A stretch of DNA of 64,000 bases from the NCBI RefSeq assembly GCF_028368995.1, contig NZ_JAQNDL010000003.1, forward strand, positions 2,592,001 through 2,656,000. The letters are read 5' to 3'. The notes under the pieces were generated by a model. It did no database searches and had not been told where the DNA came from. It saw nothing but the letters and a program-made list of their open reading frames with translations. A program made the position numbers and the translations under genes. The number at the start of each line of letters is the position of its first letter. Within the stretch, counting starts at the first letter, position 1. Shown here in pieces: positions 1,026 through 55,631 of this stretch. This DNA is from Nannocystis bainbridge. GTDB taxonomy: Bacteria; Myxococcota_A; Polyangia; Nannocystales; Nannocystaceae.

Positions 1026-1216
1026 CCGGCGAGTATGCCAACCCCGCGCCACCCGCAGAAGTCGAAGCGACCGACCGGGCTCCGTGCAGGCGCCCACAAC
1101 ATGTCTTTCGAGACATGTTTTTAGAGACATTTGTCCGACGACCGTCCGCACGGCCTCTCTGGCGCGTTCCCGCGGACCGCGCGCAAGCAGGCGACCCGTG
1201 TTACACTGGCGCGCAC

Positions 1217-2248
1217 ATGCGGGTCTGCATCCTCGGCGCCACCGGTCTCGTCGGCCGCGAGCTGCTCCACCTCATCCCGCGCGCCTGGCCGGGCGCGCAG
1301 CTCGCCCTCCACGCCAGCCGCGACCAGGAGCTCGACCTCGACGGTCGCCGCTTCGAGGTCAAGGCGGCGCACCACCTCGACGACGTCGACGCCACCGGCG
1401 GCCAGCTCGCGTTCGTCGCGCTCGACGACGAGCACAGCGCCCGCTACGTCCCGCGGCTCCTGGCCCTCGGTTACCGCGTCATCGACAAGAGCAACGCCTA
1501 CCGCGGCGACCCTGCCGTCCCGCTGGTGTCTGCGGGCGTCAACGACGGCCTCGTCGGCGAGGAGGTCCGCCTCGTCGCCAACCCCAACTGCACCACCATC
1601 CCGCTGACACTCGCGCTCGCCCCGTTGCGGCGCAGCTTCGGCGTCCGCGCGGTGGCCGTCTCCACGTACCAGGCGATCAGCGGGGCCGGCATCGCCGCGC
1701 TCGACCAGTTCTTGCTCGACGCCCAGGTCGGCTACGCCGCGCACAACCGCCTGGGCGCAGCCTTTTCGCCCTCGGGGTACGCCGGCAACACGGTCCCGCA
1801 CAACGGCAAGACCGACGACACCGGCTTCTCGGCCGAGGAGCGCAAGCTCATGACCGAGAGCAGCAAGATCCTCGCCTTCCCCGACCTGCCGATCTCCGCC
1901 CAGGCCTGCCGCGTCCCCGTCGCCGTCGGCCACTACGAGCAGGTCTGGCTGACCTGCGAGCAGCCCGTCACCCTCGACGCCGTGGCCGCCGCGTGGCAGA
2001 GCGGCGCCTTCCTCCGCATCGTCCCCACCGTCGACGGCGCTGGCCTGTCGGCGCTCGCCTGCGTGCACGAACGCGACCTCGCGCTGGTCGGCCGCGTCCG
2101 CCTCGTCCCGCACGATCCGACCACCGTCTGCTTCACCGTCGCCGCCGACAACCTGCGCCTCGGCGCCGCCACCAACGCGGTGCGGATCGCCGCGCGCTGG
2201 TTCCCCGCCGTCGACCCGACCTTGCAGGCCCCTGCCAACCTGCCCTGA
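1217..2248 (+). CDS. asd: Aspartate-semialdehyde dehydrogenase
   Basis: ILGATGLVG Rossmann motif, catalytic ANPNCTT, STYQAISGAG, RVPVAVGH and DNLRLGAATNAV. Confidence 0.92.
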   Translation: MRVCILGATGLVGRELLHLIPRAWPGAQLALHASRDQELDLDGRRFEVKAAHHLDDVDATGGQLAFVALDDEHSARYVPRLLALGYRVIDKSNAYRGDPAVPLVSAGVNDGLVGEEVRLVANPNCTTIPLTLALAPLRRSFGVRAVAVSTYQAISGAGIAALDQFLLDAQVGYAAHNRLGAAFSPSGYAGNTVPHNGKTDDTGFSAEERKLMTESSKILAFPDLPISAQACRVPVAVGHYEQVWLTCEQPVTLDAVAAAWQSGAFLRIVPTVDGAGLSALACVHERDLALVGRVRLVPHDPTTVCFTVAADNLRLGAATNAVRIAARWFPAVDPTLQAPANLP

Positions 2249-2255
2249 AAGCCAG

Positions 2256-3353
2256 ATGACGACACCACCACGCAAGTTGGCGATCGCGACCGGCGGCGGC
2301 GACTGCCCCGGCCTCAACGCGGTCATCCGCGCCGTCGTCCTGCGGGCCCACGCCGCCGGCCTCGAGGTCCTCGGCGTCGAGGACGGCCTCAACGGCCTGC
2401 TCGAAGGGACAGGTGCCACCGTGCGCGCCTTGACCCCGCTCGAGGTCACCCCGATCCTCGGCCGCGGCGGCACCATCCTCGGCACCACCAACCGCTGCAG
2501 CCCGTTCGCCTGGCGCGACCCTGACGGCACCACCCGCGACCGCGGCGACGAGCTGCTGGGGCGGGCCCGGGCGCTCGGCATCGACGTCCTGATCAACGTC
2601 GGCGGCGACGGCTCGCAGGCCCTCTCGCTCGAGCTGACGCGCCGCGGCATGACCGTCATCGGCGTGCCGAAGACCATCGACAACGACCTCGACGCCACCG
2701 TCGAGACCTTCGGCTTCGGCACTGCTGTCCAGGTCGTCACCGACGCGCTCGACCGCCTGCGCACCACCGCCGAGTCGCATGACCGCACCATGATCCTCGA
2801 GGTCATGGGTCGTCACGCCGGGTGGATCGCCCTCCACAGCGGCATCGCCGGCGGCGCCGACGTCATCCTCATCCCCGAGCTGCCTTACGCCCCGGCCCAC
2901 GTCGCCCGCGACCTCATGCGCACGCTCGGCGGCGGCCGTCACTTCGCCCTCGTCGTCGTCGCCGAGGGATGCACCTGCGTCGGCGGCGAGGTCACGCAGC
3001 GGCCGGTCTCCGGTGGCCTCGGCCCTTCGAAGATCCTCGGCGGCGCCGGTCAGCGCGTGGCCGAGGAGATCGCCGCCGTCGTGCCCGAGCTCGAGCTTCG
3101 CGTCACCGCGCTGGGTCACATCCAGCGCGGCGGCACGCCCACCGCCTACGATCGCCTGCTCGCCAGCCGGCTCGGCGTCGAGGCCGTCGAGGCCGCCCTG
3201 CGCGGCGAACGGAGCGTGCTCGTCTCGTCGCAGCCGCCCGACATCAAGACCGTCCCGCTCGAGCTCGCCGTCAAGAAGATGCGGGCCGTCGACCCGAGCG
3301 GCCAGCTCGTCGCCCACGCCCGCGGCCTTGGCATCAGTTTCGGCGACCTCTGA
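2256..3353 (+). CDS. pfkA: 6-phosphofructokinase (ATP-dependent type)
   Basis: TGGGDCPGLNAVIRAVV, GGDGS, PKTIDNDL, EVMGRHAGWIA and LGHIQRGG. Confidence 0.93.
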   Translation: MTTPPRKLAIATGGGDCPGLNAVIRAVVLRAHAAGLEVLGVEDGLNGLLEGTGATVRALTPLEVTPILGRGGTILGTTNRCSPFAWRDPDGTTRDRGDELLGRARALGIDVLINVGGDGSQALSLELTRRGMTVIGVPKTIDNDLDATVETFGFGTAVQVVTDALDRLRTTAESHDRTMILEVMGRHAGWIALHSGIAGGADVILIPELPYAPAHVARDLMRTLGGGRHFALVVVAEGCTCVGGEVTQRPVSGGLGPSKILGGAGQRVAEEIAAVVPELELRVTALGHIQRGGTPTAYDRLLASRLGVEAVEAALRGERSVLVSSQPPDIKTVPLELAVKKMRAVDPSGQLVAHARGLGISFGDL

Positions 3354-3420
3354 TCGCTTGCGCGGCGATGCGCGATCTTGGTTGCGGCCCGACGCAACCC
3401 GCGCCATCCTCCCGCCTCCC

Positions 3421-3756: not shown

Positions 3757-4871
3757 CCCTCGGGGCCTGCGAGCGCTTCGTCGCCGACCCCGGCCAGCGC
3801 GTCGCCGAAGCTGTCCTCGAGGACATGCGCCGCGCCGGCCTCGCGACCTGGGCCGTCACCTGGTCCGAGCGTCACCGCGTCGCCGCGCGCCCTGGCGACC
3901 CCGGCCTCTACCTCGCCCTCGCGCCGATGGACGGCATCACCGACGCCGTCTATCGCCGCCTCTTGACCGACCAGTTCGGCGGGCGCAGCGGCATCAGCCT
4001 GTGCGTCTCCGAGTTCGTGCGGGTCACGCGAGACCCGGTGCCCGCCGCCGTGCTCTTGCGCGACGTCCCCGAGCTCGCCCACGGCGGCCACACCCGCGCC
4101 GGCGTCCCGGTGTACGTGCAACTGCTGGGCGGCGACCCCGAGCCGCTGGCCGAGACGGCTCGCCGCGCCGCCGAGCTCGGCGCTCCCGGCATCGACCTCA
4201 ACTTCGGCTGCCCGGCCAAGACCGTCAACAACCACGACGGCGGCGCCAGCTTGCTGCGCGCCCCGCAGCGGATCCACTCCATCGTCGCCCGCGTCCGCGA
4301 CCTCGTCCCCGCGCACATCCCCGTCACAGCCAAGGTCCGCGTCGGCTGGGACTCGAGCGACGGCCTCGAAGAGATCGCCGTCGCCGCGGCCAGCGGGGGC
4401 GCCGCCTGGCTCACCGTGCACGCCCGCACCCGCGCCCAGCTCTACCAGCCGCCTGTGCGCTGGCCCGACCTCGCCCGCGCCCGCGCGGCCGTCGCGATCC
4501 CCGTGGTCGCCAACGGCGACCTGCGGGCCCCGGGCGACCTGTCCCATTGTGCAGCCCAGAGCTGCTGCCACGCCTTCATGATCGGTCGGGCGGCGATGGC
4601 TCGCCCTGACCTGTTCGCCGTCATCCGCGGCGCGCGCCAGGACCGACCGCTGCCGCTCGCCGAGCTGGCCGGCATCGTCCGCGACTACCACGCCGCCATG
4701 CGCGACGACGGGCTGGAGCCGGGCCGCGCTGTCGCACGGGTCAAGCAGTGGCTGCGGCTCGCTGCCCAGCTCGACCCGCGCGTCGAGCCGCACTTCGCCG
4801 CCACCAAGACCGCCGTCGCCTGGCCGCCGATCGACGCCCACCTCGCCGGCATCGTCGACGACGATTCGTAA
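3753..4871 (+). CDS. dusC: tRNA-dihydrouridine synthase, DusC-like
   Basis: LAPMDGITD, QLLGGDP, IDLNFGCPAKTV, TVHART, VANGD and MIGR motifs. Confidence 0.85.
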   Translation: MTLGACERFVADPGQRVAEAVLEDMRRAGLATWAVTWSERHRVAARPGDPGLYLALAPMDGITDAVYRRLLTDQFGGRSGISLCVSEFVRVTRDPVPAAVLLRDVPELAHGGHTRAGVPVYVQLLGGDPEPLAETARRAAELGAPGIDLNFGCPAKTVNNHDGGASLLRAPQRIHSIVARVRDLVPAHIPVTAKVRVGWDSSDGLEEIAVAAASGGAAWLTVHARTRAQLYQPPVRWPDLARARAAVAIPVVANGDLRAPGDLSHCAAQSCCHAFMIGRAAMARPDLFAVIRGARQDRPLPLAELAGIVRDYHAAMRDDGLEPGRAVARVKQWLRLAAQLDPRVEPHFAATKTAVAWPPIDAHLAGIVDDDS

Positions 4872-4883
4872 GATCGTCCGCGC

Positions 4884-5417: not shown

Positions 5418-6689
5418 TCACCCGCCCGATGCGCAGTCGCCTCGCAGCACCAGGTCCTCGCCGCTCGCCTCGAGCTTCGTCCCCTGCGCCTCGCTCAGCG
5501 TCGACATCCGCGCCCGGACCGTCTTGCCCATGCCCTTCGTCGCCGGCACCGGGTGCTTGCTCGGCGTCCGCTTGATGTACGCCGGATGGAACGTCAGCGT
5601 CTCGAGGCACGAATTCCCGCTGAAGCGCGCCCGCAGCACCCCCGTCAGGCGCGGGACCTCGTGCGTGTTCTCGAACAAGAAGTTGCCCAGCGAGTACGCG
5701 ATCGCCTTTTTTCCGTATTGCTCGATCGCCTGCAGCACGTGCGGATGGTGCCCCACCACCAGGTCCGCCCCGCGGTCGAGCAGCGCCCGCGCCTGCCGCT
5801 GCTGATGGGCCCCCGGCGCATCCGCGTACTCCTCGCCCCAGTGCACGAACACGATGATCAAATCGTGGGACGCCCGCGCCGCGTCGATCACAGGACCCAG
5901 CGTCGCTTCAAAGTCATTCGTCGACAGGAACGGCAGCTCCGGCGTATCCGGGAACTGCGGCGCGTTGCGGCGTGAAGTCACCGCCAGCAGCCCGATCTTC
6001 CACCCGCGGCGCTCGAACGCCTCGACGCGGAAGATCGGCGGCTCGCTGCGCGACGCCCCCAGCGGCACGATGCCCAGCTCCTCGAGGATCTTGGGCGATT
6101 GCAGCAGCCCGTCCGTCCGTTGATCGAACGAGTGATTGTTGGCCAGGCTGAGCGCCGCGAACCCGCCGTCGACCAGGTGCTGCGCCATCGCCTTCGACGC
6201 CCCGAACGCGAACCTGGCCCCGATCGGGCTCTTCACCGGCAGCTCGTACACCAGCGGCGTCTCGAGGTTGCCGACCAGCAGGTCGCTCTTCATCGTCTCA
6301 AAAATGTCATCGAACGGCCGCTCACCCTCACCGACGATCGGGTCGAACGCCGACGCGCGGTAGCGGCCGAAGATGATGTCACCGACGAACGTGATCTCGA
6401 GCGGCTCGCGCGTCACCGCCGGCTCGACCTTCGCCGGCTCGGCCTCTTCCGCACTTCTGTCCTCCGGGACAGGTTCTTCGAACCGCCGCCCCGCCGCTTC
6501 GTTGCTGTCCTCCGGGACAGGCGCGGGCGCCACCGCCGGCGCCGTCGGCTGGGCCACCGTCGCGCTCTCGCGCCCTGCCCCCGAGCACCCCGGCAGTCCC
6601 GGGACGGAGACCAGAGCAGCGAGAGCGGCGATCCGAACCAGTCCTGGCAAGGCGCGCGGGAGATACGCCCAAACCCTCGCCGCGCGCAA
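5418..6689 (-). CDS. CapA/PgsA-family metallophosphatase-fold lipoprotein
   Basis: VGDIIFGR, GNLETPL, LSLANNHSFD, VHWGEEY, GHHPHVLQ and YSLGNFLF. Start is uncertain. Confidence 0.88.
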   Translation of the reverse strand: MRAARVWAYLPRALPGLVRIAALAALVSVPGLPGCSGAGRESATVAQPTAPAVAPAPVPEDSNEAAGRRFEEPVPEDRSAEEAEPAKVEPAVTREPLEITFVGDIIFGRYRASAFDPIVGEGERPFDDIFETMKSDLLVGNLETPLVYELPVKSPIGARFAFGASKAMAQHLVDGGFAALSLANNHSFDQRTDGLLQSPKILEELGIVPLGASRSEPPIFRVEAFERRGWKIGLLAVTSRRNAPQFPDTPELPFLSTNDFEATLGPVIDAARASHDLIIVFVHWGEEYADAPGAHQQRQARALLDRGADLVVGHHPHVLQAIEQYGKKAIAYSLGNFLFENTHEVPRLTGVLRARFSGNSCLETLTFHPAYIKRTPSKHPVPATKGMGKTVRARMSTLSEAQGTKLEASGEDLVLRGDCASGG

Positions 6690-6793: not shown

Positions 6794-7684
6794 GTGCCCC
6801 TCGACGCCACCCGACGCCGCGCCGCCGTCCTGCTCGGCCTCGTCGGCCTCGTCGCCGCCGTCGAGTGGATCGCCGCCGCTCGCGCTTATCGCTCGATCCT
6901 CGGCCCCGCCGACTGGGACGCTGCCGCTGCCGCTCTCGCTGCCCTCCCGCCCGACGAGCCCGTCCTGCTCGCCGACGACTGGCTCGGCCCCACCGCCCGC
7001 CGCCACCTCCTCCCGCTCCAGCGCTCTCTCGGCCGCCCCGACCTCCACGGCGCCCCCCGCTTCCACGTCCTCGCCCTCGGCGAAGCGCTGCCGGCCGACC
7101 TGCGCGCCGACCTCGGCGACCTCGCCCCCGAGCCGCTCGGCGTCGACCCGCTCGGTCCGCTTACCCTCCATCACTTCGCCACGCCTTCGGGACATGTCCT
7201 GTGGGACATCCTCGATCAGCCCGCCCTGCTCGCCGCCGACCGCGCCGGCCCCTGCCGCAAGGCTCAGCGGACCTGGGTCTGCAAGCACGGCCGCGCCACC
7301 GTCCGCCACGCCGAGATCGCCTACCGCCCACGCCGCTGCCTCGCCATCGACATGAGCGACGGCGCCGCCCTCGAACTGCGCGGCCGCGTCGACCTCGGCG
7401 CGCGCCTGCGCGGCCACCTCGGCTTCACCGACTTCAACGGCCGCCTCCGCAACGACGCCCCCGCCATCGTCGAGCTCGAGCTCGACGGCGTCCCGAAGGC
7501 CCGCTGGCTCGTCAGCGACAACCAGGGCTGGGCCGCCTTCGAGCTCGCCACCACCCCCGGCCCCGCCGAGCTCACCATCCGCGTCACCAACCTGCTCGCC
7601 GGCACCTTTAATCCGGGCGGCTACGACCCCGAAACGCGCCGGATCCCCTGCCTCGACCTGCGCGCCATCACGGAGCCCACGTGA
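6794..7684 (+). CDS. Hypothetical membrane-anchored protein
   Basis: Long ORF with GC3 bias and an N-terminal hydrophobic helix. Start is uncertain. Confidence 0.65.
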   Translation: MPLDATRRRAAVLLGLVGLVAAVEWIAAARAYRSILGPADWDAAAAALAALPPDEPVLLADDWLGPTARRHLLPLQRSLGRPDLHGAPRFHVLALGEALPADLRADLGDLAPEPLGVDPLGPLTLHHFATPSGHVLWDILDQPALLAADRAGPCRKAQRTWVCKHGRATVRHAEIAYRPRRCLAIDMSDGAALELRGRVDLGARLRGHLGFTDFNGRLRNDAPAIVELELDGVPKARWLVSDNQGWAAFELATTPGPAELTIRVTNLLAGTFNPGGYDPETRRIPCLDLRAITEPT

Positions 7685-7836
7685 CGCCCAGAACGCACCC
7701 GCGCCGCACGCACGCTCAGGAGCTCCCGTGGCGCCCCGAACGCACCCGTCGCAGCCGCACGCGCGCCCAGGAGCCCACGTGACGCCCGAAAACCACTCGC
7801 GCCGCCGCACGCACGCTCAGGAGCTCCCGTGACGCC
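7671..7836. repeat. Three degenerate ~49-bp tandem repeats at a gene junction
   Basis: Unit resembles GTGACGCCC(A/G)GAACGCACCCG..GCCGCACGCACGCTCAGGAGCTCCC. Confidence 0.8.
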
Positions 7837-9817
7837 GCGCGCCACTCGACGCCTCACGATCGCCGCCGCCCTCGCGCTCGGCCTCGCCGTCGTCCTCCTG
7901 CTCGCCCGCGGCCACCGCGATGTCGGCTACGTCCGTGACGAGGGCATCTACTTCCACGCCAGCCGCGCCTACGCCGACTGGGCCGTGCGCGGCCTGCAGT
8001 CGCCCTCCGTCCTGTTCGACCGCCCCGCCCGCGACCGCGCTTTTGCCGTCAACCACGAGCACCCGGCCCTGATGAAGCTCGCCGGCGGCCTGTCCGCCCG
8101 CCTGTTCTCCGCGCCAGGTCCTGGCGGCCAGCCCCCCGAGACCCGCGCCCAGCCCGGCCTCGCGCCGATCATGCCCGAAGGCGCCGCCATGCGCCTGCCC
8201 GCCCAGCTCCTCGCCGGCCTCGGCGTCGTCCTCCTGTTCCTCGCCGGCGCCGGCCTCACCCGCAAACGGCCTGTCCTCGGGGACAGCCCGCTATCCGCCC
8301 CTCCCGCATCGCCCCGCCCCGCGACGCCCGTCACTGACCTGTCCCCCGGGACATCCTCGCCCCGCGAACCCAACCTGTCCCCCGAGACATCCTCGCCTCG
8401 CGCGACCGACCTGTCCCCCGAGACATCCTCAACGCTCGGCTCAAGCAGGGTGTTCGCGACCGGCACAGCTCCCGCCGCCGACCCGTCCCCCGGGACATCC
8501 TCGCCCCGCGAGCCCAACCTGTCCCCCGGGACATCCTCGCCCTCCGACCTGTCCCCCGAGACATCCGCCCTCTCCCCGCTGATCCCCGCCGTCCTCGCCG
8601 CCCTGTGGTTCATCGGCTTGCCGCACGTGTGGTTCCACGCCGGCCTCCACTGCTTCGACGTCCCCGTCGCCGTCCTCACTCTCGCCGTCGTCCTCTGCTA
8701 TCGCCGCGCCCTCGCCTCCTGGCGCTGGTCCCTCTTGCTCGGCCCGCTCCTCGGCGTTGCCATCTCCGTCAAGCACAACGCCCTCTTCATCCCCGTCCTG
8801 CTCGGCGTCCACTACCTCGCCTGCCTCGCCCTCGCCCGCCGTCGCCCCAGCCGCGGCCAACTGCTCCCGCTGCCTTTCCTCAGCATGGCTCTGCTCGCCC
8901 CGCCGACCGTGCTCGCCCTGTGGCCGTGGTTATGGAGCGACCCGCTCGCGCGCCTCGGCGAATATCTCGAGTTTCACCGCCTCCACGCCTATTACAACAC
9001 CGAATATTTCTCCATCAATTACAACCAGCCGCCGCTGCCGTGGAGCTACCCGTTCGTCCTCACCTGGGCCACCGTACCCACCGCCCTGCTCCTGCTGGCC
9101 GCGATCGGCCTCGTGCTCGCTGTCCGCAGCGACCTGTCCTCCAGGCCATCCGCCGATCTCTGTCCCGCCCGCTTCACCGCCCCTCTGCGCGGCCACCCCG
9201 CCCGCGACGGCCTATTGTGGGCCCTGTTCGGCCTGTTCCCGCTGCTCCTCATCAGCCTGCCGACCATCCCGATCTTCGGCGGCACCAAGCACTGGATCAC
9301 CGCCTACCCCTTCCTCGCCCTCGCCGCCGCCTTCGCCTACGTCACCCTGTGGCGCAGCCTCGCCCTCACCGGCCGCGCCCGCCACCTGCCCGCCGCCCTG
9401 CTGCCGCTGCTGCTCGTGCCCGCGCTGTGGAGCACGCTCCACGGCCACCCCTACAACCTCTCGCAGTACGCCCCGCTGGCCGGCGGCGCCCGCGGGGCCG
9501 CCGACCTCGGCCTCATGCGCGGCTTCTGGGGCAGCGCCGTCCTCCCGCTGCTGGATGACCTGTCCGAACGACCAGGTCCGCTCCACCTCCACGACCTCCA
9601 CGAGCTGGCCCGCCTGCAGTACGAACGCGAGGGCCGCTGGCCCCCCGGCACCACCTCCGCCCCGCTGACGCGCGCCCGCGCCGCCCTGCTGTTCCACGAG
9701 CGCCACATGCTCTCCAACGAGGTCGACGCCTGGAACCATTTTCAAAACTCGGCCCCGCTCGACGTCATCACCCTCGACGACGTGCCGCTGACCAGCCTCT
9801 ACGCCGGCAGCAAGTGA
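7829..9817 (+). CDS. GT-C fold (GT39/ArnT/PMT-like) membrane glycosyltransferase
   Basis: N-terminal TM followed by RDEGIYF and HEHPALMK, then many TM helices. Contains an internal low-complexity insert. Confidence 0.75.
   Translation: MTPRATRRLTIAAALALGLAVVLLLARGHRDVGYVRDEGIYFHASRAYADWAVRGLQSPSVLFDRPARDRAFAVNHEHPALMKLAGGLSARLFSAPGPGGQPPETRAQPGLAPIMPEGAAMRLPAQLLAGLGVVLLFLAGAGLTRKRPVLGDSPLSAPPASPRPATPVTDLSPGTSSPREPNLSPETSSPRATDLSPETSSTLGSSRVFATGTAPAADPSPGTSSPREPNLSPGTSSPSDLSPETSALSPLIPAVLAALWFIGLPHVWFHAGLHCFDVPVAVLTLAVVLCYRRALASWRWSLLLGPLLGVAISVKHNALFIPVLLGVHYLACLALARRRPSRGQLLPLPFLSMALLAPPTVLALWPWLWSDPLARLGEYLEFHRLHAYYNTEYFSINYNQPPLPWSYPFVLTWATVPTALLLLAAIGLVLAVRSDLSSRPSADLCPARFTAPLRGHPARDGLLWALFGLFPLLLISLPTIPIFGGTKHWITAYPFLALAAAFAYVTLWRSLALTGRARHLPAALLPLLLVPALWSTLHGHPYNLSQYAPLAGGARGAADLGLMRGFWGSAVLPLLDDLSERPGPLHLHDLHELARLQYEREGRWPPGTTSAPLTRARAALLFHERHMLSNEVDAWNHFQNSAPLDVITLDDVPLTSLYAGSK
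8272..8570. repeat. In-frame array of TGTC-N6-GACA palindromes (mostly 36-bp period)
   Basis: Perfect copies at 8272, 8340, 8376, 8412, 8520 and 8550, plus a near copy at about 8484. Encodes DLSPGTSSPR-like peptides. Confidence 0.9.
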
Positions 9818-9829: not shown

Positions 9830-10060
9830 ACTCGCTCCACCCCGCTCACTGTCACTCGCGCTGCACCCCGCTCCACGCCGGCAGCGAGTGAGCCGTCGCC
9901 TCTGCTCGCTCCGCCCCATTACTCGCGCTGCTCTCCGCTCCATGCAACGAGTGAGCCGTCGCCTCTGCTCGCTCCGCCCCATTACTAGCGCTGCACCTCA
10001 GTCCACGTGGCAGCAAGTGAGCCACCGCTACTCGCTCCGCCGCACGTACTCGCGCTGCAA
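9830..10060. repeat. ~63-66-bp tandem repeats between convergent genes
   Basis: GTGAGCCGTCGCCTCTGCTCGCTCCGCCCCATTACT occurs twice exactly. A third copy overlaps the 3' end of the 10028 gene. Confidence 0.8.
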
Positions 10061-11587
10061 GCCGGTCCACGGCGTCACCATCCCCGCCGCCGACATATAC
10101 CCCGTCATCGGCACCACCCGCGCCTCGCCTGCGAGCTGGCGCCCCGCCGCGTAACTGCGCCGCAGCGGCCCCCGCAGCCAGCCTGGCACGTCGCCGTCGA
10201 TCCACACCGCCGCAAACTCCCCACGACCCACCGCCTCTGCCAGCGTCGCCTCGATCTGCTCCCGCCTGTCCTTCGGGACATCGTGGATCCCCATCGACCC
10301 CACGTGCCCCGGCCCGCCCGCCAGCACGCTCCACCACGGCCGGTGCAGCGCCAGGATCGCCCGCGGCTCGCCCGCGAGCTCGGCCCGCAGCGCCGCGGCC
10401 CGCTCCCACAGGTCGGCCGGTGGGATCGTCCGCCATGGGTCTTGCCGCGCGTAGCTGTCCCGAAGGCCAGCCAGCCCGCGGTCCTGGATCGGCTGATACA
10501 TCGGCTCGATCACCAGCGCGAACACCAGCTGCGCCGCCACCAGCCCCAGCGCCGCCGCCTCGCCGCGCCCCACCGGCAGCACCACCGCCAGCCACGCCGC
10601 CGCGAAGCACACCCCCGGCATGAACGCGTTCGGCTCGGCCCACTGCGTCGAGTACCCCAGCGCCGACACCAGCAAGCCCGCCGCCGCCATCACCCCCCAG
10701 TATACCGGCCCGCGCCAGCTGTCTTTTTCGCCCTGTCCCGAGCGCCATGTCCTCAGCGCCAGCATGCGCCCGGCGACCAACCCCGCCAGCGCCACCAGGA
10801 ACGGCGCCGCGTGTAAAAACATCCCCCACGTCTTGCGCCAGAACCTCACCGCGTTGAACGCGTGCGCTTGATGCAATTCATAAATGTACGTCCAGAGTCG
10901 CCCCTCGGTCAGCCACTGCCCGAGCAGCACCCCGCCGCCGTCGATCGCCGCGATCGTCGCCGCGTACATCCACACCAGCCGCGGCGCCACGATCAGCCCG
11001 CCCACCCCGCTCGCCAGCACGAACACCGCCGCCGTCTGCTTGGCCCAGAACGCCGCGCCCACCAGCACCCCCGCCGCCACGATCTTTCGCCGACGCCCCG
11101 CGCTCTCGCGCAGCAAGATCAGCCCCCACAGCAGCAGCGCCAGGAAAAAACTGTCCGCGCGGGCCACGTCGTACCAGCGGAACGTGAACACGTACCCCGA
11201 TAAAAACAGCCCGACCGCTGCCGCCGCGTGCGCGCGCGGCTTGCCCTCGAATCGCACCAGCCGCCACAGCCCCGCGCACACCGCCCCGATCGCCGCGACG
11301 CTCACCGCCCGCCCGAGCACGTACCCGAGCGGCAGCACCCACCCCAGCGCCGCCAGCACCGCCGGATACAGCGGCGTGTACAAAAACGGCACGAACTCCG
11401 CCGACGGCTCGGGATACGCGCTCAGCCCCTGCTGAATTCGCAGCGCCGTGTGCAGGCTCCCGCCCTCCATCCATTCGAGCTCGAGCGGGAAGCCGATCCG
11501 GCACGCGAACACCACGATCATCACGACCGCCCACGCGATCGCCAGCCCGCCCACCAGCGCCCGCAGGCGGGTCACCCACACGCTCAC
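10028..11587 (-). CDS. GT-C/ArnT-like polytopic membrane protein
   Basis: TM then LEWMEG and YTPLYP, with ARADS and AKQT motifs and many TM helices. Confidence 0.7.
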   Translation of the reverse strand: MSVWVTRLRALVGGLAIAWAVVMIVVFACRIGFPLELEWMEGGSLHTALRIQQGLSAYPEPSAEFVPFLYTPLYPAVLAALGWVLPLGYVLGRAVSVAAIGAVCAGLWRLVRFEGKPRAHAAAAVGLFLSGYVFTFRWYDVARADSFFLALLLWGLILLRESAGRRRKIVAAGVLVGAAFWAKQTAAVFVLASGVGGLIVAPRLVWMYAATIAAIDGGGVLLGQWLTEGRLWTYIYELHQAHAFNAVRFWRKTWGMFLHAAPFLVALAGLVAGRMLALRTWRSGQGEKDSWRGPVYWGVMAAAGLLVSALGYSTQWAEPNAFMPGVCFAAAWLAVVLPVGRGEAAALGLVAAQLVFALVIEPMYQPIQDRGLAGLRDSYARQDPWRTIPPADLWERAAALRAELAGEPRAILALHRPWWSVLAGGPGHVGSMGIHDVPKDRREQIEATLAEAVGRGEFAAVWIDGDVPGWLRGPLRRSYAAGRQLAGEARVVPMTGYMSAAGMVTPWTGLQREYVRRSE

Positions 11588-13173
11588 GGCGCGCCCTCGT
11601 CGACGAACGGCCCGACCGCGTGCCCGCGCCGGCGCAGGCAGCAGTAAAAACCGACCTCGAGCAGCCCGCCGGGCGCCGATGGATCACTCACCGTCCCGGG
11701 CTCGGCGCACGCCCACACCATGTCGCGCCCGAACCCGCGCTTTCGCGCCGCCGACGGCGTCGGCCGCTGCGGCCCGACGTGGCCGACGTGACACAGCAGA
11801 TCGGGCTCGCGCGCCAAAATCACCGCTTGCGGCGCCATCAACTGATGCCCCGGCCGCGCCTTGACCTGCGGCTCCACCTCGACCTCGCGGGGCCAGCGAT
11901 CGACCAGCCCGTAGACATCGACCGCCCGCAACCTCGAAGCATACGGCAACGCCCCCGCTGCCCCGACCGAGATCGAAGTGTCCTCCGGGACATGCTCTTT
12001 GAGCCATGTCCCTGCGGCCACCCGCTCGCGGGCGAACCGGTCCATCGCCGTCACCCCTTCCCAGCGACCGTCGAGCCACCCGCTCGCCGTCTCGCGATCT
12101 TTCACCACCCGGCCCCGCGCCAGCAGCCCCAGCGCGATCGCCAGCACCAGCCCGGCGCCGACCGCGACTGCCGGCCCGCGGCGCCTGAAGAACTTCTCGC
12201 CCGCCTCGATCAGCAGCCACCCGACCAGCCCGGCCGTCAGCGCCGTCGCCACCACCAGGAACCGCCCGTAGGCCATGAAGTCGCCGCCGACCGACCACGC
12301 GTAGCCCACCACCGCCGCGATCGGCAGCACCAGCGGCATGTGCCTCGCCCGCAGCAGCAGCGCCAGCGGCGTCAACCACACCAGCCGCAACGCGCTCGCC
12401 CACGCGGCCACGTAGGCCACCCCGAACGTGTCGCGCAGCAGCCGGCCGTGCTGCTTGATCGCCCACGTGTTCGGCAGCCACTCCCCATAATAGGCGTGTC
12501 GCCACAGCAGGTGCACCACCAGCGGCCCGCCCGCGATCACCGTCGCGATCGCCGCCTCGCGCAGCGGAGGCAACCGCTCACGCCTGCCCCCGAGGACATG
12601 ACCGATCGACCAGACTATTAAAAACACCCCGATCGGCAGCACCGCGTCGGGTCGCGTCAATCCTGCCAGCGCCGTGAGCGTCCCTGCCCACCGCCAGCGC
12701 CCCTGCGCCGTCGCTGCCATCGCCGCGATCGTCAGCGCCGCGGCCCACGACGTCTCGAGCCCGCCGTGGGCCCACACCACGTACTCCGGCGCCGCCGCCA
12801 GCAGCAGCCCCGGGATCAGGTCCACCGCCGTCCACGGCCCGCTCGCCCCCCGCAGCCCCCGGATCAGCACGATCGTCGCCGCCGCTCCGGCCAGCGCCCC
12901 CAGCTGCGTCAGCCACGGCGCCAGCGCCTCGGGCAGCGCTCCGAGACATGTCCCGAGGGCCAGCACGATCACCCACAGGAAATTCGTATAGCCCTCGACC
13001 CGCTCGCCGAGGTTGTACTCGAGCGCCCCGTGCTCGGCCAGGTTCCACGCGTAGCGGAACGAGATATACGCGTCGTCGCAGATGAACTGCCAGGCGCGCG
13101 CGTGCACCAGCAGCAGCGCCGCGGTCGCGGCCGCCAGCGCCATCGCGGCCCTGCTCTGCCCGGCCGGCATCAC
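11584..13173 (-). CDS. GT-C-like membrane glycosyltransferase (DDAYISFRYA family)
   Basis: CDDAYISFRYAWNL...GERVEGYTNFLW, GGLET and LTRPD. Overlaps both neighbours by 4 bp. Confidence 0.75.
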   Translation of the reverse strand: MMPAGQSRAAMALAAATAALLLVHARAWQFICDDAYISFRYAWNLAEHGALEYNLGERVEGYTNFLWVIVLALGTCLGALPEALAPWLTQLGALAGAAATIVLIRGLRGASGPWTAVDLIPGLLLAAAPEYVVWAHGGLETSWAAALTIAAMAATAQGRWRWAGTLTALAGLTRPDAVLPIGVFLIVWSIGHVLGGRRERLPPLREAAIATVIAGGPLVVHLLWRHAYYGEWLPNTWAIKQHGRLLRDTFGVAYVAAWASALRLVWLTPLALLLRARHMPLVLPIAAVVGYAWSVGGDFMAYGRFLVVATALTAGLVGWLLIEAGEKFFRRRGPAVAVGAGLVLAIALGLLARGRVVKDRETASGWLDGRWEGVTAMDRFARERVAAGTWLKEHVPEDTSISVGAAGALPYASRLRAVDVYGLVDRWPREVEVEPQVKARPGHQLMAPQAVILAREPDLLCHVGHVGPQRPTPSAARKRGFGRDMVWACAEPGTVSDPSAPGGLLEVGFYCCLRRRGHAVGPFVDEGAP

Positions 13174-14732
13174 AGCGAGCGGCGCAGCGCCTCGGGGTCC
13201 TGCGCCGCGCCCATCGCCGCCTCGAGCGACACCTTGCGCGCCCGCACCAGCGCCGCCAGCGACTGCTCGAGCGACACCATCCCGTCGGCTCGACCGGTCT
13301 GGATCGCCGTGGCGATCTGGTGCCCGCGGCCCTCGCGGATCTGGGCCGCCACCGCCGAGGTCACCAGCATCTTCTCAAAAGCCACCGCCCGCTCGTTGCG
13401 CGACACCGGCACCAGCACCTGCGTCACGATCGCCCGCAGCGTGCCTGCCAGCTGCAGCCGCACCTGCGTCTGCTGGTGGCCCGAGAACCCGTCGATGATG
13501 CGGTCGACCGCCATCGCCGCCCCGGCCGCGTGCAGCGTCGAGAGCACCAGGTGGCCCGTCTCTGCCGCCGTGAGCGCCGCCGAGATCGTCTCCGGGTCGC
13601 GCATCTCGCCGACCAAAATGATGTCGGGCGCCTCGCGCAGCGACGCCCGCAGCCCCTCGGCGAAGCTCGACACGTCCTTGCCGACCTCGCGCTGGTGGAT
13701 CAGCGCCTTCTTGCTCGTGAACACGTGCTCGACCGGGTCCTCGAGCGTCACCACGTGCCGGGCCGCCGTGCGGTTGACGTGCTCGACCAGCGCCGCCAGC
13801 GTCGTCGACTTGCCCGAGCCCGTCGGCCCCGTGAACAGCACCAGCCCCGCCGGATAGCCGACCAGCGCCGTGAAGTCCTCCGGCAATCCGAGCTCCGCCA
13901 GCGTCGGCGCCTTGTCGCGCACCGGCCGGAGCGCCGCCGACAGCCCGCGCTGCTGGCGGAACACGTTGGCGCGGAAGCGCAGCCCGCCGAGGTCGAGCGC
14001 CGTGTCGACGCTGCCTGCCGCGCGCAGCCGGGCCCGCTGCTCCGGGCTCAGCACCTCGGCGAACAGCGCCGCGATCGCGGCCTCCGACGCCTGTGTCCCG
14101 ATCTCGCGCAGGTCGCCGGCCGTGCGCACCCGCGGCGCCAGCCCGGCCGAGAAGATCACGTCCGCCGCCCCCTCCCAGTGGGCCCGCTGCAGCACCCCAC
14201 GCAGCTCGTCGGCCGCCCGCTGCGCCTCCTCGTCGGGCTCTTCGGACATGTCCTCCGGGACATATTCGTGGACCACCGGCGCCGGCGCCGGCTGCACCGG
14301 CGCCTCGGTCCGGCGCCCAGGCGTCGGCGGTCGCACCGGCGGCGGCGGCGCGGGCGTGCGCACCGGCGGCAGGTCGGGCACCGGGTGGCTGTCCTGAGGG
14401 ACAGGTCTCGAAGCACCTGTCCCTGCGGTCACCCGCGCCTTGGCCAGGCTCAGGTGGTAGCGCCCGCCGTCGATCTTGAGCTCGCCGGAGAACCGCTGGC
14501 CCTCGAACGTGTGCTCGACCTTGACCGACTTGCGCAGGTCGAGCTCCTGGCGCTGCTCCGGCGTCACCAGGTCTTCGAAGAACATCGCCACCATCTCGTG
14601 GCTGACCTTCGGCATCGACAGCGGCACGTCGGCGCCGGCGCGTTTGAGCGAGGGGACGCGTTCGGAGGCGAGGACCAGGCCGTCGGCCTTCTGGGCGTCG
14701 AGGATCTTGAGCAGCGAGTCGATCGCGGCCAT
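13170..14732 (-). CDS. pilT: PilT/PilU-family ATPase with N-terminal extension
   Basis: Walker A GPTGSGKSTT, TLEDPVE, QREVG, LREAPDIILVGEMRD and AAETGHLVLSTLH. Confidence 0.85.
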   Translation of the reverse strand: MAAIDSLLKILDAQKADGLVLASERVPSLKRAGADVPLSMPKVSHEMVAMFFEDLVTPEQRQELDLRKSVKVEHTFEGQRFSGELKIDGGRYHLSLAKARVTAGTGASRPVPQDSHPVPDLPPVRTPAPPPPVRPPTPGRRTEAPVQPAPAPVVHEYVPEDMSEEPDEEAQRAADELRGVLQRAHWEGAADVIFSAGLAPRVRTAGDLREIGTQASEAAIAALFAEVLSPEQRARLRAAGSVDTALDLGGLRFRANVFRQQRGLSAALRPVRDKAPTLAELGLPEDFTALVGYPAGLVLFTGPTGSGKSTTLAALVEHVNRTAARHVVTLEDPVEHVFTSKKALIHQREVGKDVSSFAEGLRASLREAPDIILVGEMRDPETISAALTAAETGHLVLSTLHAAGAAMAVDRIIDGFSGHQQTQVRLQLAGTLRAIVTQVLVPVSRNERAVAFEKMLVTSAVAAQIREGRGHQIATAIQTGRADGMVSLEQSLAALVRARKVSLEAAMGAAQDPEALRRSL

Positions 14733-23366: not shown

Positions 23367-23965
23367 GGGTCGACGCCGGCAACGTCGTCGGCAACGCCGA
23401 GGCCAAGTACGACCACCCCAACCCGATCGCCCGCCGCCTGGTCGCCGGCTTCAAGCGGGCCGTCGGCGACCTGTACCTTCGGACATGTCCCGAGAGCGTG
23501 CTCGAGGTCGGCTGCGGCGAGGGCCTGCTGGCCGACAGCCTGATCCGCCTGCGCCGGCCGGCCTCGTTCGCGGCCTGCGACGTCGACCTCTCGCGGCTCG
23601 CCCCCGACCTCGATCCGCACCTGAACTTTCAGACAGCCTCGATCTATCAGCTGCCGCAGGCCGACCGCAGCGTCGACCTGGTGATCGCCTGCGAGGTGCT
23701 GGAGCACCTCGAGGACCCGGCCGCCGGCCTGCGCGAGCTGGCCCGCGTCGCTCGCCGGGCCGTGCTGATCAGCACCCCGTGGGAGCCGGTGTGGCGCCTG
23801 CTCAACCTCGCCCGCGGCCGCTACGTGCGCGCGCTCGGCAACACCCCCGGGCACATCCAGCACTTCTCGCGGCGGGGCCTGCTGCGGCTGGCCGACACGC
23901 GCCTGCGCGTGGTCGAGGTGCGACGGCCCTTGCCGTGGACGGTGATCCTCGGTGAGCCGCGATGA
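23363..23965 (+). CDS. Class I SAM-dependent methyltransferase
   Basis: VLEVGCGEG and ACEVLEHLEDP. GTGA overlap with the GT2 gene. Confidence 0.88.
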   Translation: MRVDAGNVVGNAEAKYDHPNPIARRLVAGFKRAVGDLYLRTCPESVLEVGCGEGLLADSLIRLRRPASFAACDVDLSRLAPDLDPHLNFQTASIYQLPQADRSVDLVIACEVLEHLEDPAAGLRELARVARRAVLISTPWEPVWRLLNLARGRYVRALGNTPGHIQHFSRRGLLRLADTRLRVVEVRRPLPWTVILGEPR

Positions 23966-32672: not shown

Positions 32673-32725
32673 CATGTGATTTCGGCGCCGGCGACCCGAC
32701 GCACCCGAACCGGCCGCGGCTTGTT

Positions 32726-36287: not shown

Positions 36288-36343
36288 ATCACCTCAGGAC
36301 ATGTCCTCAAGAACATATCCTCAAGGACATGCCCCTTCAGACA
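36288..36343. repeat. Head-to-tail chain of 14-bp TGTC-N6-GACA variants
   Basis: ...GGACA|TGTCCTCAAGAACA|TATCCTCAAGGACA|TGCCCCTTCAGACA. Confidence 0.75.
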
Positions 36344-36345: not shown

Positions 36346-37844
<1,499 letters not shown>

Positions 37845-40604: not shown

Positions 40605-40816
40605 ATCCTCTTCGGACATGTTTTACGAGACATGTCCGATCGCGCACGCTGCGATCGCCACGATGCCGCGCGGTCAGGCTACGCCTCGACCTCCGGGACC
40701 TGCTCGACGGCCGCGGTCGCGACCCGTCAGGCCTTCGTCTCGACATGTCTCTCGAGACATGCCCAATCGCGCATGCCCTTCAGGACATGCCCGTCAGAGC
40801 ATGTCCGTCGGGCCAT
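40605..40816. repeat. Two chains of 14-bp TGTC-N6-GACA variants in a convergent spacer
   Basis: GGACA|TGTTTTACGAGACA|TGTC, and five consecutive 14-bp units starting at 40746. Confidence 0.8.
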
Positions 40817-43131: not shown

Positions 43132-43794
43132 TCACGCGGGGCCGCGGTCCAGCGGGAACACGGCCACGGTGCACAGCCGGTTGCCGAGGCGGTCGCCGAT
43201 CGCCACGGACCGCTGCTCACGAGGCATCAGCCGCAGCCCGCGCAGGCTGGCGGCGGACGACCATACGCCGAGATCGTGCACGGCGACCTCGGCGTCGCCG
43301 GTGAACAGCACCAGCACGGCGGCGCCGTGGCGGATGTGCGGGTCGGCGGCCAGCTTGTCGATGTCCTTCCAGACAGGTCGCTGGAGGGCGCTGGCGTAGG
43401 CGCGGTTGGGCCCGCGCTCGTTGTGCTGGGCGACGACCTTGACCTCGAGCCAGGCGGCGTCGACCAGCTCGACCGCGTCGGTCGGGGCGAACAGCCCGAC
43501 CTGCGCCGCGGGGTCGACCAGCGGCCTGCCACCTGGCGTGACGACCATGTCGCAACGGACACCCTCGGAGCGGCGCCGCAGGATCCGGTCGCGCGGGAAC
43601 CTGACCTCGGCCGTCACGCCGTAGCCGGCCCCCCGCAGGCCCTCGCGCAGGACCGGGTGCAGCTCGAGCTCGCTGCGGGCGTCGAGGCCCCGGACCGCCT
43701 GCTCGAGCTCGACCTCGGCCGACGCGGCCCCGAGCCCCGCCACCAGGGCGTCGGCGAGGTCGTCCCAGCGCCAGTCGATCGCGGTCGTGTTCAC
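43132..43794 (-). CDS. Hypothetical protein, possible PD-(D/E)XK fold
   Basis: E...AEVRFP...RCDMVV...WLEVK...DIDKL pattern. Confidence 0.6.
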   Translation of the reverse strand: MNTTAIDWRWDDLADALVAGLGAASAEVELEQAVRGLDARSELELHPVLREGLRGAGYGVTAEVRFPRDRILRRRSEGVRCDMVVTPGGRPLVDPAAQVGLFAPTDAVELVDAAWLEVKVVAQHNERGPNRAYASALQRPVWKDIDKLAADPHIRHGAAVLVLFTGDAEVAVHDLGVWSSAASLRGLRLMPREQRSVAIGDRLGNRLCTVAVFPLDRGPA

Positions 43795-44086
43795 GGCGGG
43801 CGAGCTTAGCGCTCGCCCTCCGCCGCGCCCGCACCCGCCCGCAGCGCCGCGACGGACGCGAAGATTCGCCGCCCTCGCCCCGCCGCCGAGGTCTGACTCA
43901 CACGCCGCGGCGCTCGCGTCGCAGGGCCGCGCGGCGCCTCGCCATCAACCTGTCTCTTCAGACATCTCACCGCCTCGCTGCGGTCGTCGGCTCGTTCGTC
44001 GTCAGCGACGGCTGTGCGGAGCGCGCGCTTGCGGCTCGCGACGGCCCTCGGCTATGCCTCGCGCTCCCCGACAGGAAGGTCCCCCC

Positions 44087-45094: not shown

Positions 45095-45154
45095 TCCGAC
45101 CTGCCTCGCGCTCGGCGTCCTCGCAACGCGAGGCGCCGGCGCAGCCTGCGTCTT

Positions 45155-45306
45155 CGCGGCCTGTGTCTTCGCTGCCGAGGCATCGACGCTCGCGGCCTGC
45201 GTCTCCGCTGCCCGAGGCGTCGATGCTCGCGGCCCGCGTCTTCGCTGCCCGAGGCGTCGACGCTCGCGGCCTGCGTCTTCGCTGCCCGAGGCGTCGACGC
45301 TCGCGG
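45155..45306. repeat. Four ~37-bp near-identical tandem repeats
   Basis: Unit CGCGGCCTGCGTCTTCGCTGCCCGAGGCGTCGACGCT, with no spacers. Confidence 0.9.
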
Positions 45307-45433
45307 CGACCTCGAGGTCGTCCTCGCAGCGCGAGGTCCCGACCTCCGCGGCGCGTCTCGGGCGACGCAGCAGGACCGGCCGCTGCGCCGCCGCTGACCG
45401 GCCGCGGCGGCCGCGTGTATAGTCGCCGCCTTC

Positions 45434-47386: not shown

Positions 47387-47575
47387 TGTCCGATGGGACA
47401 TGTCATCGCGGCTCTCCACGCGCGATGACGCCTGTCCTCGGGGACATGCCATTCGCCGGCGAGCCCAGGCACCCCGGCCCGACGGGCCATGTCATCGCGG
47501 CTCTCCAAGTTCGATGACGCCGATCCTCGGGGACATGTCACTCGCCAGCGATCCCCGGCGCCCCGGCCGAGCCCG
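47387..47575. repeat. Two ~89-bp direct repeats with internal hairpin and TGTC-N6-GACA
   Basis: CATGTCATCGCGGCTCTCCA..CGATGACGCC..TCCTCGGGGACATG occurs twice. Confidence 0.75.
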
Positions 47576-49303: not shown

Positions 49304-52165
<2,862 letters not shown>

Positions 52166-54317: not shown

Positions 54318-54390
54318 CCGCGAACGGCGGCGCGGGCCTGCTCGAGCGAGCAAGCGCCGCGCCGCCGCGGTGGTGACAGTCGGCTGTCGC

Positions 54391-55200
54391 TCAGTTGCAG
54401 AGCTGATTGCGGGGGATGCAGCCCTCTTCCTCGCCGCAATGGCAATCGTAGTTGCCCTGGCACGGGCCGCAGGTGGGCTCCTCGGGCGGGGCGCAGTAGC
54501 CCTTGATGTCGTTGATCTTCCAGGTCGAGTAGTAGTTGCTGGCCGCGTACGCGTACGACTGGCAGGCCGACGACGCGCTGGAGAGGGTCGAGGTCGAGCC
54601 GCAGCCGACCGAGAGGCCGGTCTTCGGGCCGCAGCTATGGGTCGTGGTGATCACGCCGCAGGTCGCGTAAGTGTACGTATTGATCGTCTCGGTGATCGCG
54701 TTGCAGGCGTTGTTGTACGTCACGCCCGCGTTGGCCTGGACCGCGTTGCAGGTGCTCGGGCCGGCCAGGGCCGTGTGCGTCAGCTGGGCCTGACAGCGGA
54801 ACGACTCGGCGCTGGGCGCCGCGATCTCCTTGTTCTCGATCTCGACGATGAGGGCGCGGATCTCCGCCAGCTGCCCCGGCGAGGTCTCGCTGCCCGGGAC
54901 CTCCGCCGCGATCGCCAGGTGCTCCTCCGCCGCGTACAGGCTGGCCAGCCCGTGCAGCTTGCCCGGCTCGCCGACGCCGACGAACTCCTCCTGGCCGTCG
55001 GCGCCGATCCGGCTCCACAGGCCTTTGTCTTGCTCGACCCAGCCGTCGCCGAGGCCCAGCTCCGCGGGCGTGAGCAGCGTCGGCTGCGACTCCGGGGTGG
55101 CGCCGTCGTCACCGGGGGCGTCGCAGGCGGACAGCGTGAGCGCCGAGGCGGCGGCGCAGAGGAACGAGAGGGCGAAGAAGTTACGGATGTGCTTGTGCAT
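54391..55200 (-). CDS. Lipoprotein with Cys-rich C-terminus
   Basis: Lipobox LSAC, with GAGG before the ATG. Confidence 0.75.
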   Translation of the reverse strand: MHKHIRNFFALSFLCAAASALTLSACDAPGDDGATPESQPTLLTPAELGLGDGWVEQDKGLWSRIGADGQEEFVGVGEPGKLHGLASLYAAEEHLAIAAEVPGSETSPGQLAEIRALIVEIENKEIAAPSAESFRCQAQLTHTALAGPSTCNAVQANAGVTYNNACNAITETINTYTYATCGVITTTHSCGPKTGLSVGCGSTSTLSSASSACQSYAYAASNYYSTWKINDIKGYCAPPEEPTCGPCQGNYDCHCGEEEGCIPRNQLCN

Positions 55201-55631
55201 GGTGACCTCGATACAAAAACGTGGGCTGTGAATGCGCTGGTTCGGGCGCACGAGGGCCCGACGTCCGACCGCAAGGGTCGGGCGGGAGCGACGGACGCCA
55301 TGCGTCGTCGCGGGCCTCGTGCGTGCCGGGCGGAGAGCGTCCGGCTTCATGAAGGGGTTGCTCGGGCGCGCCGGTTCCTGACACCCGCCTCGCGAATATT
55401 TTCAGGTCCGCCGCGACGGCGCGGATTCGGGCCGGGCGCCCCCGGCCCTTCGGCGAGTCCGACGGCGGTGGGATGGCCAGGCCTGTCCGGGCGCCCATGC
55501 ACGAGATGTCCCTTCGGACATTTTACATGGCCTTCAGGACATCTCGCTGGATCATCCACGAGCCCCGAATGTTAAAACGAAGCGCGGCGCCGACGGTTCA
55601 CCCGTCGCCGCCGCGCCTCGTCGAGCTCAGC

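Follow-up and report, generated by a model that had tools for sequence, protein, structure and literature searches.

A rigid, lineage-restricted palindrome of Nannocystis, spread through genes and stacked in phased arrays behind stop codons

Several kinds of iterated short DNA elements are known from bacteria. The repetitive extragenic palindromic (REP) sequences and bacterial interspersed mosaic elements (BIMEs) of enterobacteria and pseudomonads, which go along with RAYT transposases, are short palindromes clustered 3' of genes and in convergent spacers, and they can fold as RNA. DNA uptake sequences (DUS) of Neisseria and uptake signal sequences (USS) of Pasteurellaceae are single asymmetric words, often placed as inverted pairs after genes. 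Ribbon-helix-helix operators such as the metboxes of MetJ, as well as ParR iterons, consist of contiguous units without linkers, each taking up one dimer, with cooperativity set by their phase. The highly iterated palindrome HIP1 (GCGATCGC) of cyanobacteria is, according to two reports, enriched 15-300-fold, conserved both inside open reading frames (ORFs) and in the stretches separating them, no peptide, RNA or regulatory motif, recognized by two methylases and recently proposed as an uptake signal (PMC5861425, PMC13756078). Such hyper-abundant short palindromes are a long-standing puzzle, and, as far as these sources go, the function of HIP1 is only starting to emerge three decades on. Here, a 64-kb stretch of the Nannocystis bainbridge genome (hereafter the window) is described, which is pervaded by the gapped palindrome TGTC-N6-GACA, in its fuller form TGTCC-N4-GGACA. 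This 14-bp unit is a lineage-restricted, selectively maintained, rigid palindromic site that accumulates in resident DNA. Judged from sequence, it may best be understood as a duplex-DNA site for a symmetric, lineage-specific protein, combining HIP1-like behavior with a REP-like location; the probability of this reading is put at roughly 45%. No description of the motif in Nannocystis or other myxobacteria was found in the open full texts searched.

The window holds 30 perfect copies of TGTC-N6-GACA, whereas 100 dinucleotide-preserving shuffles yield 0.68 on average (sd 0.79, largest 3; 0/100 reach 30). An initial annotation, made from the letters of the window, had listed 29 start positions and estimated fewer than one copy per 64 kb by chance; all 29 are indeed perfect, the single overlooked copy starts at 43548, and the estimate agrees with the shuffles. 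With one mismatch allowed, 89 matches are obtained vs. 17.2 expected (largest shuffle value 26), including the degenerate copies named at that time (12585, 36302, 37978, 49183 and 60284). Across the source genome (11.05 Mb, 71.5% G+C, five contigs), TGTC-Nk-GACA occurs 3,663 times at k=6 and only 29-155 times at each of k=0-5 and 7-15; the specific peak on which the initial proposal depended is thus present, and k=6 alone stands out among k=0-15. The form TGTCC-N4-GGACA totals 1,987 copies, its backwards-read control 3. If 8 or more of the 10 core letters are required, 13,775 units are counted, compared to 3,316 for the reversed control, and these units cover 1.74% of the genome. Altogether, about 10,000 units can be estimated, at a density of approximately one per kb.

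The full unit reads RNM-TGTCC-N4-GGACA-KNY, in which two TGTCC half-sites are opposed across a 4-bp spacer of fixed length and free sequence, with weaker preferences in the flanks. Over all units these flanks favor ACA on the left and TGT on the right; where no neighbor abuts, the left flank is R-S-C and the right one its mirror image. Spacing is rigid (N4 1,987, N3 16, N5 5), which fits a symmetric (dimeric) recognizer, as suggested at the outset. The enriched object is the pair and not the single half-site word: among 11,418 GGACA words, 4,027 are joined at N4 by a TGTCC-like partner, and the remaining 7,391 compare with a Markov expectation of 6,943. The 4-nt spacer itself displays ordinary dinucleotide preferences, and no Watson-Crick covariation was found within it.

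Enrichment is confined to three genera of the Nannocystaceae among the genomes searched, which answers the question of other myxobacteria raised in the initial annotation. TGTCC-N4-GGACA occurs 114-2,090 times in the other genomes of the genus (10/10), 87-169 times in a second genus (5/5 genomes) and 67-696 times in a third (7/7 genomes); tallied by genus, the three enriched ones (g1, g2 and g4) score in 7/7, 5/5 and 7/7 genomes. In 14 other Nannocystaceae genera at most 20 copies are present, so that 19 motif-positive genomes of the family stand against 41 others, and 200 other Myxococcota genomes contain at most 14, similar to their own controls; these counts are those of sampled genomes, so that outside the three genera the motif was not found in those searched. 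Since three genera are positive and fourteen negative in a single family, candidate genes can be named by phylogenetic profiling. Cultured strains are available, including N. exedens DSM 71 and N. pusilla Na p29.

Within the genome, motif deserts of 30-48 kb are observed, whereas a Poisson model gives a maximum of about 22 kb. One motif-poor stretch (contig C1:1138240-1266582) has only three units in 128 kb at a lowered G+C content of 0.67-0.70. Nine of its genes were scanned from a random ten, revealing one phage-type integrase, one terpene-synthase/FAD-oxidase fusion and five genes without Pfam family, and in none of 10 congeners does a 20-kb piece of it have a syntenic counterpart. This stretch is probably a recently acquired, strain-specific island. 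Being motif-poor and without synteny, it argues that recently acquired DNA lacks the mark. The motif can be used to flag such DNA in these natural-product-rich genomes.

Coding regions were delineated by a purpose-written codon-usage caller (7,940 genes, 82% coverage), which places stops reliably and starts imprecisely. Perfect copies inside these genes amount to 1,266, as compared to a mean of 89.2 (maximum 96) in 8 shuffles preserving both the protein and the codon usage of each gene. The resulting 14-fold excess holds against the codon-aware null called for in the initial annotation, and neighboring values of k stay near their own nulls. In the same shuffles, the in-phase spacings k=3 and k=9 give 42 and 46; since k=6 reaches about twice these values even after shuffling, the proteins themselves must have been nudged toward the motif. 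A perfect copy is present in 921 of the 7,940 genes, and in-gene copies are evenly distributed along them. Sorted by the codon position of their first T, they fall into 646 copies (position 3), 521 (position 2) and 99 (position 1). The shunned frame would read Cys-Pro...Gly-His, and because it is avoided, in-gene units are read as x-V-(P/L)-x-D-x or (L/M)-S-x-G-T. Disordered linkers abound in unit-built repeats of the PVPEDS, AVPADS and LSPGTS types, so that a DNA motif visibly shapes protein sequence. The impression that host genes are unrelated is borne out in the window, where Dus, PGA_cap, a T2SSE ATPase, a thioredoxin-like protein and proteins without Pfam family carry copies.

The window was further compared with five congeners of 87-89% nucleotide identity (15-31 kb aligned per genome); one window protein is 90% identical to its orthologs in the two cultured strains named above. 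TGTC-N6-GACA is retained in 56 of 66 site-species pairs, six of the ten losses falling in a 36-bp repeat region. Motif letters at third codon positions are identical in 200 of 207 cases (96.6%) vs. 81.9% for third positions elsewhere, and A or T third positions outside the motif are conserved in 33-37%. Synonymous conservation in orthologs, proposed initially as a check, therefore agrees with the 14-fold excess over the codon-aware null in placing selection on the DNA rather than on the protein. Conservation between ORFs (16/16 letters) comes from one site. Thus, both lineage over-representation and conservation between genomes, two hallmarks of HIP-type motifs, are observed here.

The units of the window are as follows (positions within the window; the strand of the host or adjacent gene is given where it is minus).

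1102-1129: two abutting units, one perfect and one with one mismatch, in a spacer between opposite-strand genes
3812-3825: single unit in the Dus gene, read A-V-L-E-D-M
6458-6519: two single units (6458, 6506) in the N-terminal part of the PGA_cap gene, minus strand, each P-V-P-E-D
7195-7208: gene 6794-7684 with a single unit, read H-V-L-W-D-I; distant orthologs lack it at the aligned position
8272-8563: six perfect units and one with one mismatch in a 36-bp (12-amino-acid, DLSPGTSSPREPN-like) coding repeat of membrane-protein gene 7829-9817; copy number varies between species
9121-9148: two abutting one-mismatch units in gene 7829-9817
10267-10280: gene 10028-11587, minus strand, with a single unit read D-V-P-K-D-R; gap-free counterparts in distant orthologs are DVPPEH, DVRPDE and DVDPEA
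10734-10761: two abutting one-mismatch units (period-14 repeat)
11979-12020: perfect unit (H-V-P-E-D-T) and, 28 bp on and in phase, a one-mismatch unit in gene 11584-13173, minus strand; distant orthologs NLPAST, NLPQET etc., gap-free
14249-14431: T2SSE ATPase gene, minus strand, N-terminal region; units at 14249 and 14390 and a further one, in phase, at 14418
24513-24540: two abutting units in a 14-amino-acid (42-bp) stretch absent from three distant orthologs
24756-24985: seven one-mismatch units (TGTCC-N4-GGCCA) with 36-bp period in a coding repeat of gene 23962-26889
25478-25491: single unit, read M-S-I-G-T
26784-26797: single unit, read P-V-P-E-D-M
26909-26922: unit 20 nt past the stop of gene 23962-26889; three of four anchor-matched relatives have a different unit in the same spacer (+3, +3, +100)
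28338-28351: intergenic unit followed by a T-rich run
29692-29705: single unit in the N-terminal region of the thioredoxin-like gene, read L-S-F-G-T
32661-32674: unit overlapping the stop codon of gene 32025-32672
36302-36343: three abutting one-mismatch units ending 3 nt from the stop of gene 36346-37833, minus strand
40746-40815: five-unit phased array in a convergent spacer; 40746 perfect, one mismatch each at 40774 and 40802, the two intervening units degenerate
43362-43561: two single units (43362, 43548) in gene 43132-43794, minus strand
43951-43964: intergenic single unit
47387-47446: two units bracketing another hairpin, from 16 nt past the stop of a sulfatase gene; part of an 89-bp tandem repeat (47390-47568)
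50738-50751: single unit in gene 49304-52165, minus strand
55507-55520: intergenic unit in the spacer downstream of gene 55632-56822, minus strand

How such copies came about can be followed by comparison with distant orthologs of about 45-65% protein identity. Sites 10267, 11979 and 26784 lie in gap-free protein alignments opposite residues which do not encode the motif, and at 7195, 25478 and 29692 only gaps of 1-5 residues are present in some distant orthologs. Hence, none of these six sites came from a unit-length insertion, and substitution is the simplest origin. Site 24527, by contrast, falls in a 14-residue stretch (42 bp, three unit lengths) missing from three distant orthologs. The units at 6458 and 6506 are perfectly kept in close species, with diverging flanks. 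In spacers turnover is fast, and a unit recurs after the same stop with a new offset and loop in three of the four anchor-matched related genomes. The repeat-bearing genes 7829-9817 and 23962-26889 encode large multi-pass membrane proteins with loops of unit-built 12-residue repeats (DLSPGTSSPREPN and SPVPSAISACAN, respectively); a 'glycosyltransferase-like' label for the two was discarded, as no Pfam match was obtained at 1e-5. Repeat number varies in gene 7829-9817 (1,989 nt), its ortholog match spanning 1,731-1,815 nt in other species.

Phased arrays, the placement after stop codons and the restriction to three genera are all absent from the initial annotation. Spacing spectra of half-sites display peaks at 14, 28, 42, 56 and 70 bp. 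GGACA is directly followed by TGTCC (distance 5) in 956 cases vs. 11 with one extra base (distance 6), and the junction CATG recurs at exactly 14 bp 3,736 times, making it the most regular letter group in the arrays. As units are often alone (1,145 of 1,987) and junction words rarely lack a completing partner (196 of 956), the N4 unit is basic and arrays are abutted units. At most 12 units are joined, and array lengths outside genes show a bump at 5-6. Neighboring units mostly differ in their loops (93 identical loops vs. 34 expected in 2,784 pairs), so that most arrays are not fresh duplications. Higher-order palindromy between adjacent units was considered as an organizing principle and rejected, being only weak (58 reverse-complement loops vs. 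34 expected in the same pairs). Long arrays are somewhat denser on contig C3 (129 per Mb) than on the other contigs (60-116 per Mb).

With respect to the genes, 2,358 (64%) of the 3,663 perfect copies are located outside (1.20/kb), 1,266 (35%) inside (0.14/kb), and 39 straddle an edge. Convergent spacers are richest (2.83 copies/kb), followed by tandem (1.13/kb) and divergent ones (0.41/kb); by a slightly looser pattern, at least one unit is present in 660 of 1,305 convergent (51%), 819 of 3,763 tandem and 180 of 1,456 divergent spacers. A classical global regulator, one of the options first considered, is disfavored by this distribution, the promoter-bearing divergent spacers being the poorest. 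First units start mostly 0-25 nt past stop codons (most at +2 to +25), and the peak at +11 fits a TGA stop acting as the TG of a degenerate first unit. Among the called genes, TGA serves as stop in 6,591, TAG in 1,000 and TAA in 346. Relative to the upstream gene, loops occur almost equally in both orientations. The motif is to be considered in Nannocystis gene calling as well as in terminator and repeat annotation.

On the scale of the chromosome, every 200-kb bin of the five contigs holds units, with an about fourfold range in density among full bins. A chromosome organizer in the manner of MatP, Noc or SlmA had also been suggested and is not supported; matS, Noc and SlmA sites are numbered in tens and confined to or excluded from regions, whereas here thousands are distributed over all contigs, without an ori- or ter-restricted zone and without any region exempt or privileged. 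Cumulative GC skew changes sign near 1.6 Mb on contig C3, a candidate origin or terminus.

Of the possibilities raised initially, a HIP1-like iterated palindrome fits best. Both motifs are short palindromes, hyper-abundant in one lineage, found in genes and spacers and conserved between genomes, which points to selection, and neither is a peptide or regulatory motif. The sequence of HIP1 is unrelated, however, and the Nannocystis unit is bipartite (5+4+5 with a free spacer), stands in 14-bp arrays without linker, is 9-fold denser outside genes and hugs stop codons; its exact-form enrichment (1,987 vs. 3) is also far higher. It represents an independent, cleaner case of an iterated palindrome from a distant phylum, and its specific binder should be easy to fish out because the site is longer and bipartite. 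As a model for how the arrays could work, MetJ and ParR arrays appear to be nearest, although those comprise a handful of units at specific promoters or centromeres, compared to thousands genome-wide for a binder that is putative here. A scan for possible self-regulated binders gave 76 small genes that face a divergent spacer and have a unit no more than 200 nt upstream; with some 10,000 units in the genome, a promoter unit is not discriminating for binder genes.

Whether the unit acts as duplex DNA or as an RNA hairpin can be addressed by its variation. Half-sites vary nearly independently (T..A 1,987, C..G 146, mixed 695), and degenerate units beside strong ones carry 2,498 one-sided vs. 417 double changes. 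On the sense strand, mismatches of G.U and A.C type are similar in number (1,712 vs. 1,536; 641 vs. 518 in the degenerate-unit set), and a single unit folds marginally as RNA (-7.7 kcal/mol, z -0.6). Weighed together with in-gene conservation, these tests of structure against sequence favor a duplex-DNA site without settling the matter. According to this reading, a symmetric, probably dimeric, sequence-specific protein of Nannocystis and two sister genera would read the site as double-stranded DNA, and copies would be kept by selection, or by recognition-dependent drive, on the DNA. Copies in genes may then arise mostly by point substitution at places where V-P-x-D or L-S-x-G-T is acceptable to the protein, with in-frame repeats of 36 or 42 bp as an occasional source. 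Free of coding and promoter constraint, just 3' of ORFs and above all in convergent spacers, sites would abut without linker, which is easy because the outer ACA/TGT flank already provides the first three letters of the next site. The outcome would be phased 14-bp arrays of typically up to 5-6 units, a phase that would let adjacent dimers touch. The 3' location could reflect a job at gene ends or merely freedom from coding and promoter constraints. As to the benefit of binding, our guess would be that it marks DNA as resident, or that the sites serve gene ends as architectural or insulating elements.

Several observations weigh against the duplex-DNA reading. A unit starts within 120 nt of the stop codon in 1,790 of 7,937 genes (22.6%), and such units are found downstream of only 4 of 102 tRNA genes; the bias for positions after stops fits a role at mRNA 3' ends at least as well. 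If transcribed, arrays would form stable folds (z -2.7 to -4.2). Positions -1 and +14 covary mildly in the Watson-Crick sense (A-T 1,214 vs. 1,082 expected, C-G 294 vs. 175), and among the 417 double changes 224 keep their pairing; a transition bias or a mixture of array and single sites could account for this, but pairing could do so too. The conservation data are strong in size and modest in sample (19 sites, five related and non-independent species), and the home-made gene calls make the coding/intergenic split approximate. Finally, the DNA-binding dimer itself is a putative reader.

A bolder form of the duplex-DNA reading would make the motif a genome-wide marking system, in which an abundant new dimer reads TGTCC-N4-GGACA, polymerizes on phased arrays and forms 3' protein blocks that insulate transcription units or relieve supercoiling, and in which in-gene copies label self DNA for recombination or uptake. 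As a whole, this proposal is considered unlikely. If true, three units would span 42 bp or about four helical turns, roughly one gene in four and one convergent pair in two would have such blocks at the 3' end, and selection would have been strong enough to rewrite hundreds of proteins with V-P-x-D and L-S-x-G-T peptides.

Somewhat unlikely, yet to be taken seriously, are transcribed hairpins in the manner of REP sequences. Here, the unit would form a stem of 5-8 bp and a tetraloop in the 3' untranslated region, with arrays as larger structures, with a function in protecting the 3' ends of mRNAs, in terminating or pausing transcription, or in stalling ribosomes at termination; in-gene copies would be by-products. 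The Nannocystis units are palindromic, clustered 3' of genes and in convergent spacers, and foldable in RNA as REP elements are. The richness of convergent spacers, the first units 0-25 nt past stops, the near absence of units at tRNA genes, the folding of arrays and the mild covariation all speak for such hairpins, as does the fact that related genomes keep a unit after the same stop with other sequence and offset. No 3'-end role explains, however, why 35% of perfect copies lie in genes with their synonymous letters conserved. Moreover, the stem sequence is fixed and not just complementary, G.U is not favored over A.C, N3 and N5 loops are virtually absent, and a single unit folds marginally. 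Unlike REP elements, which alternate in orientation, the 14-bp units have variable loops and a strict head-to-tail phase. RAYT (Y1 transposase, PF01797) gave 0 matches in this genome, which is 90.5% complete (the control was positive in 6 of 14 reference genomes); a REP/RAYT system was ruled out by this result and by the location, 1,266 of 3,663 copies not being extragenic. Among 1,204 sense-oriented sites no U-tract follows the units, and there is no T enrichment past the TGT flank, so that intrinsic (Rho-independent) terminators were likewise rejected. The 4 of 102 tRNA genes with a unit downstream also argue against a general terminator, in a small sample; no tRNA gene (0/102) has a unit upstream.

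Molecular drive without cellular function, in which a receptor or repair enzyme prefers DNA carrying the palindrome and recombination restores and spreads it, seems quite improbable. Its pattern does resemble that of uptake sequences in being lineage-specific, evenly spread at about one unit per kb, located in genes in tolerated frames and made by substitution, in leaving its trace in the proteome (PVPEDS- and LSPGTS-type repeats), and in its absence from recently acquired DNA. Known uptake signals, however, are single asymmetric words, whereas in Nannocystis the half-site alone is not enriched (lone GGACA 7,391 vs. 6,943), only the exact inverted pair; phased arrays without linker occur and are not predicted by drive. 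The conservation data do not separate drive from selection, and an uptake role is now proposed for HIP1 too (PMC13756078 and a 2024 bioRxiv preprint).

A lineage-specific methyltransferase, with or without a repair partner, that reads the palindrome or the CATG junction is by analogy conceivable and very improbable. Recognition of HIP1 by two methylases (PMC13756078) speaks in its favor, as do about nine N6_N4 methylase loci plus one D12-class methylase in this genome and the regularity of the CATG junction (14-bp recurrence 3,736). Methylation alone, however, gives no reason for a thousand-fold enrichment or a position after stops, a C5 methylase was not found in the genome, and the D12-class enzyme was ruled out as lineage-specific factor, since it is present in 41/41 Nannocystaceae genomes including those of motif-free genera. 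This adenine methylase (contig C1:3591256-3592797, a 679-codon open frame) is suggested by its conservation to be a housekeeping (orphan) enzyme.

That the unit is a mobile miniature element copied by a transposase, as in REP/RAYT or miniature inverted-repeat elements, can hardly be credited: one in-gene site in a 42-bp insertion relative to three distant orthologs, units carried in 36- and 42-bp repeats, the excess of identical adjacent loops (93 vs. 34) and the array-length bump at 5-6 would fit, whereas no Y1 transposase was found, most informative in-gene sites show no unit-length insertion, loops differ among copies, which are thus not recent descendants of a master, and there are no conserved ends beyond the unit.

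Several families of repeats abound in the spacers of this genome. In the window, the composite 89-bp tandem duplication at 47390-47568 includes, between its units, an unrelated hairpin with a 10-bp stem (GTCATCGCG...CGCGATGAC), its RNA fold reaching -36.4 kcal/mol (z -4.2). An Rfam scan of the window at gathering score matched only the tRNA gene 31607-31679 (minus strand), whose downstream spacer has an ordinary G+C-rich hairpin and no unit. Unrelated intergenic tandem repeats are located at 7672-7836, 9854-10059, 27196-27439 and 45154-45307, with periods of 50, 63, 64 and 37 bp, respectively, and a further repeat with a 249-bp period (34765-35414; 2.6 copies, 73% matches) lies inside the minus-strand gene 34282-36066.

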